A DNA stretch of 64,000 nucleotides from an uncultured Eubacteriales bacterium. GTDB lineage: Bacteria > Bacillota > Clostridia > Christensenellales > CAG-138. The stretch lies in NCBI GenBank assembly GCA_900319345.1, contig ONNZ01000005.1:18581-82580 (forward strand), written 5' to 3'. A program made the position numbers and the translations under genes. The notes beneath the pieces were generated by a model. It ran no database searches. It saw nothing but the letters and a program-made list of their open reading frames with translations, and was not told the origin of the DNA. This document shows, in pieces, positions 5,272 to 63,711 of the stretch (the stretch's first letter is position 1; each line of letters begins with the position of its first letter).

Positions 5272-5348
5272 GGGGATGTAGCTCAGCTGGTTAGAGCGCT
5301 GTGTTCACATCGCAGAGGTCTAGGGTTCGAGTCCCTACATCCCCACCA
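5272..5348 (+). tRNA. tRNA-Val(CAC)
   Basis: GGGGATG/CATCCCC acceptor stem, anticodon arm CTGTG-TTCACAT-CGCAG, GTTCGAGT T-loop, encoded CCA. Confidence 0.96.
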
Positions 5349-5542
5349 ATAAAAAACCACCTTTTCAGGTGGTTTTTTATTGGTGGGGATGTAGGGCTCG
5401 AACGGGTTCGGTAGTGAATGGAGCGCCAGTGGCGCTCCAGAGCCGAACCCCGACCAAGCCCGCAGGCGCGAATTCGAGTCCCTGAAGCTTCATCTACCAT
5501 TACACCTCCAAGCCCGCAGGCGCGAATTCGAGTCCCTACATC
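5349..5542. repeat. tRNA-associated composite palindromic element, copy A
   Basis: Inverted repeat 5325-5362/5367-5403; core hairpin 5404-5450; 30-bp direct repeats 5454-5483 and 5508-5537. Confidence 0.85.
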
Positions 5543-40026: not shown

Positions 40027-40386
40027 TTATGGATTCATGGCGGCGTGTTCCGCTACCAGCTCCCGATGGAGCCGGCTGGGCGTCCAGCAGAGGTTATGCT
40101 CTGTGGTAATTGCCTTATAGGTCACGGTAGCCTGAAGCATCTGCATCCCGTTCAGCAACCCGTGGAACTGCTCGGCGCTGAGTCCGTCCAGCACCAGCAT
40201 CTCTTCCGTAAAGGGGGCATCCAACGTAAGTGAAGCGGATGTGCCTCCCTTTCCAAGGAGCATCCCCAAGGGCCGATTGCAGTCCTCCGACTTCCCCTCG
40301 ATAGCAACTATCCCATACTGCATCAGCAGAAACAGCAGCTTCATCTTCTTCTCGCCGGTGATATTGAACAGCAGCGCCTTGGCCAT
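40027..40386 (-). CDS. DUF3783 family protein
   Basis: EEMLVLDGLS, KAITTEHNLCWT, ELVAEH. Confidence 0.8.
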   Translation of the reverse strand: MAKALLFNITGEKKMKLLFLLMQYGIVAIEGKSEDCNRPLGMLLGKGGTSASLTLDAPFTEEMLVLDGLSAEQFHGLLNGMQMLQATVTYKAITTEHNLCWTPSRLHRELVAEHAAMNP

Positions 40387-40414
40387 GGTTTTATCCTTTC
40401 ATTTGGAAGAAATA

Positions 40415-40449: not shown

Positions 40450-40533
40450 TGGTGCGGTGGACGAGACTTGAACTCGTACGCGCGAAGCACACGCACCTCA
40501 AACGTGCCTGTCTGCCAATTCCAGCACCACCGC
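40450..40533 (-). tRNA. tRNA-Leu(GAG)
   Basis: GCGGTGG/CCACCGC acceptor, anticodon arm CACGT-TTGAGGT-GCGTG, long variable arm, GTTCAAGT, CCA. Confidence 0.95.
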
Positions 40534-60926: not shown

Positions 60927-62315
60927 TTACCTTTTGATCCTGGCCATCCTCGCCGCCTTTTTCTTGCGCCAGTTCATATTCCGATGGGCCTGTTTTATGC
61001 TGGCTGGGGAAACTTCGTTTTGTGCCAGAGCCTCCTGGAATTTGTTCATGCGGCGATCCTGCACGTTGACAGCGGAGGGCTGTATATCGCCGGACTTGGT
61101 CAGGGCCCACTTGGTGAGCAATGGCCCAAACAACTCATAGATCAACACGCTGAACAGGATGATGTTCTTGATCAGGATACCGTCGGCGCTGCCCAGCTTT
61201 GCCGCTGTGACGCACATGCCGAGGGCCACGCCCGCCTGGGGCAGCAGCGTGATGCCCAGATACTTCTTCACCACGGGATCGCATTTGGTGGCAGAACAGC
61301 TGAGGTAGGCGCCTACGTACTTGCCCACGGACCGCATCAGGATGTACACCACGCCCACCAGGATCACAGCCCCGTCCTTCAGCACGTCCAGCTCCAACTC
61401 CGCGCCGCTCAGCACAAAGAACAGGGCGAACAGGGGCACGGTCCACTTGTCGGCCCGCTCCATCAGATCATGGGACAGGGGGCAGATGTTGCAGAACACC
61501 GTCCCCAGCATCATGCACACCAGGAGGGTCGAAAAGGAGATCCTGACCCCGCCGATCTCGAAGGAGATCATAGACAGGGCCACCGTCAGCACCACGAAGG
61601 CGATGGTCAAGGAGAGGCGGTTGGAGTTGGAGAAGAAGGTGCGCTCCAGCATGGTCAGCACCCAGCCCAGGATCGAGCCCAGCACCAGGGAAGCGGCGAT
61701 CTGGATGAGGGGTTCCACGATGATGCCCACCATATCCGTCTTTCCTGTGACGAGAGAGTTGGCGATACCAAATGATACTGCGAACACAGCAAGACCCACG
61801 GCGTCGTCCAGAGCGACCACAGGCAGCAAGATATCCGTCAATTTTCCCTTTGCCTTATACTGGCGAACGACCATCAACGTGGCCGCCGGAGCGGTGGCTG
61901 CAGCGATGGCACCCAGCACGATGGTAGCTTCGATAGACAGCTTGTCAGGCATCAGAAAGTGCAGTCCGATCAAGGCCACATCCACGAACAGGGTGGCAGC
62001 CAGCGCCTGAAAGATGCCTACGATCACGGCCTGTTTGCCGATGGCTTTGAGCTGAGAGAGCAAAAACTCGTTGCCGATGGAGAAGGCGATGAACCCAAGA
62101 GCCGTGTTGCTGATCACCGACAGGTTCTCCACCTCCGCCGCCGAGGTAAAGCCCACGCCTTCGATGCCAAGTCTCCCCAGGCAATGGGGCCCAATGATGA
62201 GGCCGGCGATCAAAAACGCAGTGACGTCCGGCAGATGCAATCGAAGCATCTTGAACACGCGGGTCATCAACAGCCCGATGAGCAGGGCCAACGCCGCCGC
62301 GAGCATCTTTTCCAT
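60927..62315 (-). CDS. Cation:proton antiporter (CPA family)
   Basis: Multi-TM; ATAPAAT, VALDD, RSVGK, LLPQAGVA. Confidence 0.9.
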   Translation of the reverse strand: MEKMLAAALALLIGLLMTRVFKMLRLHLPDVTAFLIAGLIIGPHCLGRLGIEGVGFTSAAEVENLSVISNTALGFIAFSIGNEFLLSQLKAIGKQAVIVGIFQALAATLFVDVALIGLHFLMPDKLSIEATIVLGAIAAATAPAATLMVVRQYKAKGKLTDILLPVVALDDAVGLAVFAVSFGIANSLVTGKTDMVGIIVEPLIQIAASLVLGSILGWVLTMLERTFFSNSNRLSLTIAFVVLTVALSMISFEIGGVRISFSTLLVCMMLGTVFCNICPLSHDLMERADKWTVPLFALFFVLSGAELELDVLKDGAVILVGVVYILMRSVGKYVGAYLSCSATKCDPVVKKYLGITLLPQAGVALGMCVTAAKLGSADGILIKNIILFSVLIYELFGPLLTKWALTKSGDIQPSAVNVQDRRMNKFQEALAQNEVSPASIKQAHRNMNWRKKKAARMARIKR

Positions 62316-62416
62316 GTGAATAAAAACCTCCCATTCAGATCAAACAAAGGTGTATCATAGCACGAAAAGAAATAAAGTCAAGGGTTTTAGGCCATTATTT
62401 CGTTCATGGAAAAGCA

Positions 62417-62445
62417 TTGACATTTGATAACCTCTTTGGTATACT
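62417..62445 (+). promoter_or_regulatory. Sigma-A promoter of the tRNA-Ser pair
   Basis: TTGACA-N17-TATACT with extended -10 TG. Confidence 0.85.
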
Positions 62446-62480
62446 TCCCTTCGAACGGAAGCGGGGGGCATCGAAAACAC

Positions 62481-62568
62481 GGAGATGTGTCCGAGTGGTC
62501 TAAGGAAGCGGTCTTGAAAACCGTCGGCATGCAAGTGCCCGTGGGTTCGAATCCTACCATCTCCGCCA
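62481..62568 (+). tRNA. tRNA-Ser(TGA)
   Basis: GGAGATG/CATCTCC, anticodon loop CTTGAAA, long variable arm, GTTCGAAT, GCCA. Confidence 0.95.
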
Positions 62569-62573
62569 TATAT

Positions 62574-62666
62574 GGAGAAATACCCAAGTGGCTATAAGGG
62601 GCTCCCCTGCTAAGGGAGTAGACTGGGATAACCGGTGCGTGGGTTCAAATCCCACTTTCTCCGCCA
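62574..62666 (+). tRNA. tRNA-Ser(GCT)
   Basis: GGAGAAA/TTTCTCC, CTCCC-CTGCTAA-GGGAG, long variable arm, GTTCAAAT, GCCA. Confidence 0.95.
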
Positions 62667-62866
62667 AGAAATAAAGAGGGCATTTGCTCTCTTTATTTCT
62701 TATTATGAGGAAACGTGGGATTTGAACGGGTTCGGTAGTGAATGGATTGCCAGTGGCGATCCAGAGCCGTGCCCATGGCCTGCGCCGCCGCGCAGGTCAA
62801 ATCCCATTCCAGCTCACCTGCAAGCATTTGGGGCCGTTGCCTGCGCCGCAGCGCAGGTCAAATCCC
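62667..62866. repeat. tRNA-associated composite palindromic element, copy B
   Basis: Hairpin 62666-62701; anti-T-arm 62715-62727; core 62728-62774; 28-bp direct repeats 62778-62805 and 62839-62866. Confidence 0.85.
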
Positions 62867-62874
62867 TTTTTTCA

Positions 62875-63711
62875 TCAGTATTCATCCACGCAGAAGCAGG
62901 GCTTCCTGGAGGCCTCCATGGCCCGCCAGATCTCCTCCGAAGCCAGCATGACGTTTTGGGGGCCCACCTCCCCCGGGACGTCGGCGTCGGGCGGGAGCTT
63001 GGCGGACACAGGCCGTTCCCTGGCGATGCGGCGCAGCTCCTGGAGCAGGGGGCCGTAGCCCGTCAGAGACAGGACCTCCTCCCCGTAGACCTCCTCCTTC
63101 GCAAAATAGATGCAGTAGCCCACGGTCTTCCCCGCCTCCCGGAACAGAAACCCCCTGGCGTCGTCCGCGGCGTAGTCCGCCATCTTCAGGCGGAACCCGT
63201 CCCGATCCCGGTGCACGAAGCCTGTATAGCGGTCCGCCATGGCGGCATAGACGCGAAAAGCCTCCCCCTCTTCGAAGGGGACGATCTCCCCCTGCAGGAA
63301 TTCTCCCTCCCCCTGCCAATACTTCGTGAAGGTGCTGGGGCGAAAGCCCAGGTGGGCATAGGCCCCCTGGCGCTGGGGATGGTTGAACAGGGCGCGAACG
63401 CCTCGACGTTCCGCCTCCCCCTGTAAAAAGCGCATGGCGTCGTACATATGGCCTCTGCCACGTTCCTCCGGGATCGTGGCCACGCCGGAGGTCATGAGGG
63501 CCGTAAAGGAGCCGTCCCCCAGGGACAGGTCCATTGGAGTGCCATGGATGGCCGAGATCAGTTTGTTCCCGTCAAAAACGCCGACGGACCATGCCGGTAA
63601 GTACCGGTTTTCGAAAAACCAGTCCACGAAGGCGGGCGGATCGTCGAAGGCGGTGTCCCATAGGGCCCTGGCCTGGAACAAGTCCGACCGAGTGAGCAAT
63701 CGGATCGTCAT
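62875..63711 (-). CDS. GNAT acetyltransferase (Eis-like N-terminal region)
   Basis: LWDTAF, SGVATIPEERGRGHM, YAHLGF. Confidence 0.85.
   Translation of the reverse strand: MTIRLLTRSDLFQARALWDTAFDDPPAFVDWFFENRYLPAWSVGVFDGNKLISAIHGTPMDLSLGDGSFTALMTSGVATIPEERGRGHMYDAMRFLQGEAERRGVRALFNHPQRQGAYAHLGFRPSTFTKYWQGEGEFLQGEIVPFEEGEAFRVYAAMADRYTGFVHRDRDGFRLKMADYAADDARGFLFREAGKTVGYCIYFAKEEVYGEEVLSLTGYGPLLQELRRIARERPVSAKLPPDADVPGEVGPQNVMLASEEIWRAMEASRKPCFCVDEY

Follow-up and report, generated by a model that had tools for sequence, protein, structure and literature searches.

The window analysed here, a stretch of 64,000 nucleotides (nt) from the genome of an uncultured Eubacteriales bacterium, carries behind two of its tRNA genes a small structured module whose flanks are copies, one inverted and one direct, of the 3' end of the tRNA that it follows. 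Copy B lies behind tRNA-Ser(GCT), and copy A behind tRNA-Val(CAC). The observation is real and highly non-random: the fold of the module is under selection, and the family to which both copies belong is large, widespread in uncultured Clostridia, and without description in Rfam or in the literature searched. As for its origin, the reading that we favour, with a little less than even confidence, is that a non-autonomous module of the single-stranded DNA type would have been inserted in the T-loops of tRNA genes and would owe its flanks to templating by the target.

A unit of the module is about 150-200 nt long and has no reading frames. Read on the strand of the tRNA, it starts from X, the stretch of the tRNA itself that extends from its T-loop to CCA, and goes on with a palindromic terminator, bordered by an A-tract and a T-tract. 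Then come X', which is X in reverse complement, a core made of the helices P2 and P3, a hairpin, P4, and X once more, in direct orientation. The inverted arm X' ends at GAA(C/G), the complement of the T-loop TTC, and the right X begins between tRNA positions 53 and 57. In the core, the internal loop TAGTGAA separates P2 from P3, P3 ends in an AGT apex closed by C-G, and GAG leads back to the second strand of P2; both the asymmetric internal loop and the AGT(G) apex are invariant. The word GTAG, also invariant, lies within the P2/P3 internal loop (GGTAGTGAAT), not at the foot of a simple hairpin. P4 is a short hairpin with a CGCA loop and mismatches of the G.A type on both sides. Single units folded alone form a three-way junction of P1, in which X' pairs with X, P2-P3 and P4, and both strands fold about equally well (z-scores -3.9 to -5.5).

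Copy B shows all these parts on the plus strand. Its tRNA-Ser(GCT) gene (62574-62666) is the last tRNA of a unit of two, the first being tRNA-Ser(TGA) (62481-62568), upstream of which lies a strong promoter-like site (62417-62445). The segment X of tRNA-Ser(GCT) covers 62643-62666. The terminator hairpin at 62666-62701, with its A-tract and T-tract, is the pivot of the palindrome formed by X and X'; its arms, 62666-62682 and 62685-62701, are 17 nt long and 94% complementary, although a scan of 62300-63000 for consensus intrinsic terminators gives no match. The inverted arm X' follows at 62706-62727. Its T-arm part, GTGGGATTTGAAC at 62715-62727, is the exact reverse complement of 62643-62655 (13 nt), a match that grows to 16 nt when one mismatch is allowed (62643-62658 and 62712-62727), and is preceded by a decayed anti-acceptor segment, GAGGAAAC. 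The hairpin, the exact inverted copy and the decayed segment had been listed in a preliminary description of this DNA, and are found where it placed them. In the core (62728-62774), P2 pairs 62728-62735 with 62767-62774 and contains one T.G and one T.T, and P3 pairs 62743-62751 with 62755-62763 under the apical loop AGT; the internal loop is the conserved TAGTGAA / GAG.

Beyond the core, copy B continues with P4 (62779-62796), here CCTGCGC-CGCC-GCGCAGG, a long variant also present in the tRNA-Ser(CGA) copy, and with the right X of the first unit (62797-62806), TCAAATCCCA, a direct copy of the T-loop and of the 3' strand of the T-stem, which pairs with X' to form P1. Then comes what is left of a second unit: a spacer (62807-62839) with the remnant of a CCCC...GGGG hairpin, and a stretch (62840-62866) that holds a second P4 (62840-62857) and a second right X (62858-62866), followed by TTTTTT. 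The preliminary description had singled out two 28-bp direct repeats in this region. The repeats are real, and even extend to 36 nt (62773-62808 and 62834-62869, 89% identity), each with a hairpin CCTGCGC-CGC(C/A)-GCGCAGG and then TCAAATCCC, but they are not a separate feature: they are the P4-plus-X ends of two tandem units, the second of which has no core. This is seen by comparison with two relatives, since second cores or units are kept there at the same locus: in one, denoted G014, two tandem units are complete, down to X, CCA and terminator in each, and the other, G013, has two cores and a third P4 with its X, its second core being preceded by a stretch homologous to the spacer of copy B. 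Copy B is a decayed two-unit member of the module family.

Copy A, also on the plus strand, follows tRNA-Val(CAC) (5272-5348). Its terminator (5349-5380) and its full-length X' (5381-5403, TGGTGGGGATGTAGGGCTCGAAC) occupy 5349-5403 and, together with the end of the tRNA, make a long near-perfect palindrome. The module proper runs from 5404 to 5542, with the core at 5404-5450, P4 at 5458-5467, X at 5473-5483, a second P4 at 5512-5521 and a second X at 5527-5542. The cores of copies A and B, rightly identified as one and the same at the outset, differ at 5 of 47 positions, and the changes in the inner stem, G-C to T-A and C-G to T.G, keep the pairing. Behind the remaining one of the window's four tRNA genes, tRNA-Leu(GAG) (40450-40533, minus strand), there is nothing but a plain terminator, as had been remarked, and the same is true in all 13 genomes of the genus in which it was located.

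If the flanks are copies of the neighbouring tRNA, they should resemble it more than they resemble other tRNAs. We scored them in 48 distinct copies that stand beside a tRNA or tmRNA gene, taken from the genome that holds the window (denoted G000: 2.14 Mb in 68 contigs, 90% complete), from its genus and from other Clostridia. The inverted flank X' has a median score of 13 against its own tRNA and of 7 against other tRNAs (95th percentile 11); for the direct flank X, the medians are 15 and 6 (95th percentile 10). The claim that the flanks track the identity of the adjacent tRNA, made on two copies, thus extends to the whole set. A telling case is a tRNA-Thr with the unusual T-loop TCCGAAT, whose X' contains the matching ATTCGGA. 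The junction, mapped against the TTC of the T-loop as had been proposed, lies in the T-loop throughout.

With the third copy of X upstream, the full arrangement is X-a-X'-b-X, in which 'a' is the terminator segment; it is found in 23 of 36 tRNA-linked copies, against 1 of 44 others. In 14 of the 48 units, the module is followed by a complete second 3' end with CCA. Compared by eye, the two terminators of each of these 14 units make 2 near-identical pairs, about 4 pairs that are visibly akin and 8 that look unrelated. Second 3' ends with CCA and a terminator are often seen outside this genus; within it, the basal genome G012 has the form at tRNA-Val. In yet another genome, G136, two tRNA-Leu(GAG) genes on separate contigs (L047 and L088) are both followed by an element in which P4 is enlarged and the second 3' end complete. 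Core identity is 0.745 between copies of the same assembly at different tRNAs (n=59) and 0.713 between copies of different assemblies at the same tRNA (n=22), a difference too small to decide whether lineages follow the tRNA or the genome.

The second line of evidence is the fold. The 15 copies of G000 were compared, on five measures, with 500 shuffles and with controls in which the pairing partners are slid. In these copies, 96.7% of the cells are paired and 15 of the 20 pairs have changed on both sides; none of the five measures is attained by a shuffle, and with slid partners 31-50% of the cells are paired. The set from other Clostridia consists of 92 matches to a covariance model, R1, of which 87 are distinct; they come from 80 loci in other genomes, the first 80 of at least 118 stretches returned by a scan for the core pattern in one genome per species of GTDB. 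These loci were gathered by an exact loop pattern, so that the conservation of loops in this set is partly a matter of selection of the sample; the stems are free of it. In the 87 copies, 94.8% of 1601 cells are paired, against 27-41% with slid partners, and the covariation score, 0.536, exceeds that of shuffles (0.125) and of slid partners (0.04-0.07); none of 500 shuffles matches the pairing. The covariation that the preliminary description had proposed to seek in a larger alignment is therefore present, and the fold of the module is under selection.

Within G000, the searches agree on the size of the family. A 17-nt word of the core, with at most two mismatches, occurs 9 times, and its reversed control not at all; a profile search finds 16 copies and one fragment; and model R1, which also served for the search of the family, gives 16 matches with E-values from 2.6e-15 to 2.2e-9. 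These 16 matches probably correspond to about 15 canonical copies: contigs C32 and C42 overlap at their ends, so that two matches are one copy, and the match on C34 seems to be the second of two tandem units at the tRNA-Cys locus of C33. Likewise, C6 continues C53 (tRNA-Ala(CGC)) and C10 continues C67 (tRNA-Gln(CTG)). The canonical copies follow the tRNAs Val(CAC), Ser(GCT), Ser(CGA), Leu(CAG), Leu(TAA), Arg(ACG), Cys(GCA), Trp, Ala(GGC), Ala(CGC), Lys(CTT) and Gln(CTG). One more stands behind the tmRNA, which Rfam confirms, and one behind a 3' fragment of a tRNA on C18 that escapes both aragorn and Rfam. This fragment (G000:C18:10330-10400, or about 1417-1487 of L005) extends from an anticodon-loop-like CTCCTAAG through to GGAGGCCA, and may be the displaced 3' part of a tRNA left by an integrative element.

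Three more tRNAs of G000 have variant modules, with the same X-terminator-X'-hairpin-P4-X layout and a different internal loop: tRNA-Ser(GGA) on C20, tRNA-Thr(GGT) on C33 (45900-46443, two units) and tRNA-Arg(CCG) on C25. Model R1 misses them because they lack the GTAGTGAAT / AGAG internal loop. Plain terminators follow two genes for Arg(CCT), two for Met, and those for Leu(GAG) and Pro(GGG); tRNA-Pro(CGG) has one possible X'-arm terminator without a module. In units of several tRNAs, the module is found only behind the last one, where the terminator exists, and never between tRNAs. A strict pattern of A-tract, CCACC...GGTGG and T-tract has 6 matches in the whole of G000, all at tRNA ends, and the terminator stems of tRNAs without an element are unrelated, which hints that the terminator may travel with the unit. 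Six contig ends of this genome fall inside copies; the repeat therefore breaks the assembly, and tRNA-adjacent copies are likely to be undercounted in metagenome-assembled genomes (MAGs). The contigs that end within copies or tRNA-derived arms are C6, C10, C32, C34, C42, C53 and C67.

Outside G000, the core word is found in 15 of 16 other genomes of the genus. Model R1 has matches in 10 of 100 other genomes of the family, where members of the genus have 14-15 copies each and other genera 1-3. In the class, 10 of 150 other genomes have matches; they belong to six families, and one of them has 19 copies. Among the matches listed from the scan of one genome per species of GTDB, all are in MAGs of uncultured Clostridia, most of them from gut, rumen or faeces by their titles, with the labels Acutalibacteraceae, Oscillospiraceae, Christensenellales, Congzhengia or 'Eubacteriales'. 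A search of 2.9 million viral contigs returned a single match to the core pattern.

The module turns out not to be tRNA-specific in general: in the first 80 of the at least 118 loci, only 26 of the 87 cores lie within 400 nt after a tRNA or tmRNA of the same strand. The cores away from tRNAs stand between variable inverted flanks, often the arms of REP-like hairpins headed by GTAG, and have upstream an extra mini-hairpin with a GAA triloop, of the GCGAAGC type. Their orientation relative to the flanking genes is mixed, by an indicative measure based on crude stop-to-stop frames. REP-like hairpins of the form GTAGGGGAGGG...CCCTCCCCTAC are seen at L059, L103, L126, L102, L091 and other MAG loci; in several of them, the core sits in the loop, beside a GCGAAGC-type mini-hairpin and modules such as GGCACG...GTGACGGAGGG.

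The history of the two loci can be followed in the genus. The tRNA-Ser(GCT) element is present in G000, G004, G014, G015, G013, G003, G008, G007, G016, G010 and G006; G011 has a deletion remnant, and G012 a different family of repeats. The tRNA-Val(CAC) element is present in G000, G004, G011, G008, G016, G003, G015, G007, G012 and G010, disrupted in G014 and absent in G002. Both loci are thus present across a clade of 10 genomes, and both are old. At tRNA-Ser(GCT), orthologues preserve the terminator hairpin through compensatory changes. Within X', GTGGGATTTGAAC was kept, and the decay of the anti-acceptor part has taken a different course from one lineage to another; G003 and G008 have a full-length near-perfect X', with the anti-acceptor GTGGCGGAGAAAGTGGAGATTTGAAC still in place. 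At tRNA-Val, a decayed X' of a common type (TGGTAT...GGAAGGGACTCGAAC) is shared by G007, G015, G016, G003, G008, G010, G011 and G012, and the near-perfect TGGTGGGGATGTAGGGCTCGAAC, which completes the palindrome through the terminator, is found in G000 and G004.

In a nucleotide tree of DnaE, G000 and G004 are nested in a clade with G007, G014, G015 and G016 (support 90/97); G010, then G003 with G008, then G012 branch successively further out, and G002, G001 and G005 form the outgroup. The tree leaves out G011, whose DnaE protein fragments are 95-97% identical to the DnaE of G000. Most parsimoniously, then, the decayed arm at tRNA-Val would be ancestral, and the perfect arm of copy A would have been restored later, templated by the tRNA across the terminator hairpin. 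Assuming such a restoration, the decay of an arm is no clock, and the suggestion that copy B is the older of the two does not hold. The same re-templated arm supports another of the early suggestions, that the flanks are copied locally rather than imported as fixed ends.

Loci made of a tRNA and an element are breakpoints of gene order. The minus-strand gene that lies downstream of copy B in G000 is found upstream of the tRNA-Ser pair, and in the opposite relative orientation, in G013, G007, G011, G008, G003 and G010. The neighbours of tRNA-Leu(GAG) differ in most genomes. The closest relative of G000, G004, lacks about 105 nt that in G000 separate the tRNA-Leu(GAG) terminator from the body of the gene downstream (window 40300-40405; C108:2499-2503 in G004), and with them the region of the start codon used in G000. 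The repeats found in G012 behind tRNA-Ser(GCT) (L177) and tRNA-Leu(GAG) (L211) are of a different family, which does not track tRNA identity: small hairpins rich in G+C form arrays, with (G)TGAAATC(C) after each hairpin, in direct and then in inverted orientation.

How could a module acquire flanks that spell the end of whichever tRNA it follows? The best reading, in line with the preliminary description, is independent formation at each tRNA by one mechanism. In the insertion that we favour, the module would enter, as single-stranded DNA, the T-loop of the tRNA that closes a transcription unit, and its flanks would be templated from the target rather than carried in. Two routes can be imagined. 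In the first, the tRNA gene would exchange one strand with a folded hairpin of stem X':X, as in CTXphi or integrons; in the second, the strand would be joined at a nick in the T-loop, and repair synthesis would fold back at the terminator palindrome, by a template switch, and write X' up to the nick. The second route would explain that X' abuts the terminator, ends in the T-loop and can match any tRNA, without the need for one lineage per tRNA; the first would explain second terminators that are unrelated. After insertion, hairpin-templated correction from the tRNA could keep or restore X'; the three-way junction would be kept by selection, and the enzyme would act in trans. Taken further, this suggests a new class of elements that target tRNA genes and have no ends of their own: the module would be joined in the T-loop as single-stranded DNA, replication would pivot on the terminator and write the 3' end of the target both ways, and the module would so re-address itself to each tRNA or tmRNA, its arms being re-templated later. 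In this strong form, the proposal is possible but doubtful.

Several observations weigh against insertion. No mobilising enzyme was found: G000, 90% complete, has no match to a Y1 transposase, an IS110 DEDD transposase or a reverse transcriptase (RVT_1), its 3 tyrosine and 4 serine recombinases adjoin no copy, and in other genomes no protein family recurs next to the module. The 8 pairs of unrelated terminators among 14 are not predicted at birth by the fold-back route, and the polarity of re-templating at tRNA-Val rests on one gene tree, in which some forks are unresolved. In other Clostridia, 61 of the 87 copies are away from tRNAs and show only the arrangement Y'-module-Y. Compensatory changes preserve the pairing in orthologues, for instance GGGTTCGG/CCGAACCC in G013 and GGGCTGGG/CCCAGCCC in G003; they favour a function at the level of the host and point to selection that still acts on the fold at these loci, since dead insertions would not show them, unless copies convert each other. 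Finally, no insertion polymorphism was observed: the Ser(GCT) and Val(CAC) loci are occupied across the clade, and Leu(GAG) is empty in 13 of 13 genomes, so that any mobility must be old or rare. A clean pair of filled and empty sites, sought at tRNA-Leu(GAG) in the genus and around L115 in another genus, was not obtained because gene order beside these tRNAs is not conserved.

The selected fold could also be that of a functional RNA in the trailer of the tRNA, a three-way junction whose P1 imitates the acceptor/T-arm minihelix of its neighbour. Such an RNA could be the substrate or decoy of a processing enzyme, a back-up terminator or, through X', an antisense guard against read-through. Strong covariation, invariant loops and a structure maintained in vertically inherited orthologues are what one expects of it, and so are an orientation that is always that of the tRNA, a place that is always after the last tRNA of the unit, and a right X that, outside the genus, often reaches CCA and then a terminator. 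Copies A and B have T-runs after P1, which the other copies lack. Tandem internal loops of the G.A type are presumably RNA-like, and TAGTGAA / GAG may resemble the consensus of a kink-turn-type motif, a three-nucleotide bulge followed by tandem sheared G.A pairs between two helices. Contigs from four RNA-library runs do cover the element; its depth there is 2-6, comparable to that of the neighbouring gene, and the depth of the tRNA goes up to 216. These contigs carry neither strand nor ends and may reflect DNA carry-over, so they settle nothing on transcription. The base pairs themselves speak for DNA. On the tRNA strand, 17 cells are G.U and 22 are A.C, and with no excess of wobble pairs nothing points to a single RNA strand as the molecule under selection. 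The element also lies behind a probable intrinsic terminator, a promoter scan finds no promoter-like site inside copy B, and a function alone leaves unexplained that P1 copies the adjacent tRNA rather than being any stem. From the wobble count, the folding of both strands, the mixed orientation of copies away from tRNAs and the lack of an internal promoter, we take selection to act more probably on DNA than on a single strand of RNA; a functional RNA seems to us rather unlikely.

The same evidence at the level of DNA, namely wobble, mixed orientation and the folding of both strands, would suit a host element of the REP or BIME kind, placed at the end of highly transcribed units for protein binding, supercoil relief, insulation or bidirectional termination. 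Its tRNA-derived arms would be a by-product of the growth of a palindrome from the terminator by template switching, with which the probable restoration of X' by hairpin templating agrees. In other Clostridia, the module does sit in the loops of GTAG-headed REP-like hairpins, together with other small hairpin modules; its distribution in the class is patchy but wide; and the elements coincide with breaks of gene order. What palindrome growth alone leaves unexplained is the stop of X' at the T-loop and the direct X downstream. Moreover, the Y1 transposase missing from G000 (PF01797) is the one associated with REP sequences. Y1 genes do occur in 4 of 5 other genomes searched, but they look IS200-like and have no module on their flanks; we know of no protein partner. 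We regard a REP-like host element as unlikely.

A third alternative is that the elements are scars of islands mobilised by integrases, X being a remnant of attR or attL and the core a conserved arm region of attP. Direct repeats of tRNA and tmRNA 3' ends are said to be the classic signature of such islands; the tmRNA is also a target here, one copy stands behind a tRNA 3' fragment, and integrases are present in G000, one of them adjoining tRNA-Arg(CCT). Neither attL nor attR, however, would be expected to yield an inverted X', and a decaying scar would not be expected to have a covarying fold, or to show, as a unit of 150-200 nt, the same architecture at about 15 loci of one genome. In the viral contigs, with their single match, no prophage or island with a core next to attP was found, and neither an integrase nor any other protein recurs beside the copies: in an all-against-all BLAST of 1126 frames around the 87 copies, no cluster is found in more than 4 loci. 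Island scars are a very improbable explanation.

Other candidates were rejected. A classical miniature inverted-repeat transposable element (MITE) would have a short target-site duplication and fixed terminal inverted repeats common to all copies, and the inverted flanks vary by locus and match the adjacent tRNA; a CRISPR-like mini-array fits by the sizes of repeat and spacer, but the repeats are ends of tandem units. A tRNA-primed retroelement, with X' akin to a primer-binding site, finds no reverse transcriptase in G000, and the order of the parts does not fit. An invertible X'/X switch is dismissed by a core that is never seen inverted, and a rolling-hairpin concatemer by the lack of flip and flop of the core.

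If the reading holds, these elements are a large undescribed family of structured non-coding elements of uncultured gut and rumen Clostridia, which occupy most ends of tRNA operons in some genera, and they offer a testable case of ends templated by the target, with arms apparently copied anew after decay in one lineage. If they are functional RNAs instead, they would form an abundant new class linked to tRNAs. In practice, they fragment assemblies, coincide with changes of gene order at tRNA loci, and multiply, as decoys, the att-like tRNA 3' ends on which integrases act.

It remains to compare the module with known systems. At the gathering scores of Rfam 15, only tRNAs match in the whole window, and within 62560-62900, with E-values up to 10, the element has only weak sub-threshold matches at chance level. 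A full-text search of the literature, outside supplements, for tRNA-linked repeats, the core words, integrative mobile elements exploiting Xer (IMEX) or attP, and MITEs found no description of the family, and the passages of PMC11602168 that concern tRNA, Clostridia or terminators contain nothing relevant to the element.

Like REP/REPIN-RAYT, BOX, RUP, Correia and ERIC sequences, the module is short, gene-less, intergenic, present in many copies and able to form hairpins; it has a word GTAG in its conserved loop, and is found elsewhere inside REP-like hairpins. Unlike them and unlike MITEs, its terminal inverted repeats copy the neighbouring tRNA instead of being fixed, its copies differ by compensatory changes in stems instead of being near-identical, and G000 has no RAYT. 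Quasipalindrome correction by intramolecular template switching, reportedly described by Ripley and by the Lovett laboratory, has its counterpart in the long quasi-palindrome of X, terminator and X', near-perfect in G000 and G004 and with a decayed arm in relatives. It would explain the upkeep of X', but would leave unaccounted for the existence of a conserved module, an end point that always falls in the T-loop and the direct copy downstream.

Direct repeats of tRNA and tmRNA 3' ends reportedly mark integrated islands, with the T-loop as one sublocation class, in work by Williams of 2002. Islands and prophages that integrate in tRNA genes use the same targets and the same sublocation as the module, leave the tRNA whole, and have a direct copy of its 3' end at the far side, sometimes with CCA and a terminator; the module differs by its tiny size, its lack of integrase and genes, its extra inverted copy and its near absence from viral contigs. 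A further parallel is with elements in which a folded single-stranded attP hairpin is exchanged with a chromosomal site, as in CTXphi-type IMEX. As with these and with integron attC sites, an exchange of one strand between a hairpin of stem X':X and a target X would yield X-a-X'-b-X, the site would be set by a conserved fold and unpaired signature bases, and the element encodes no recombinase. The module departs from both in that it is found at the T-loop region of genes for tRNA and tmRNA, where they use dif or attI, and in that it is a unit of about 150-200 nt without cargo, whose stem varies from locus to locus and matches the local target.

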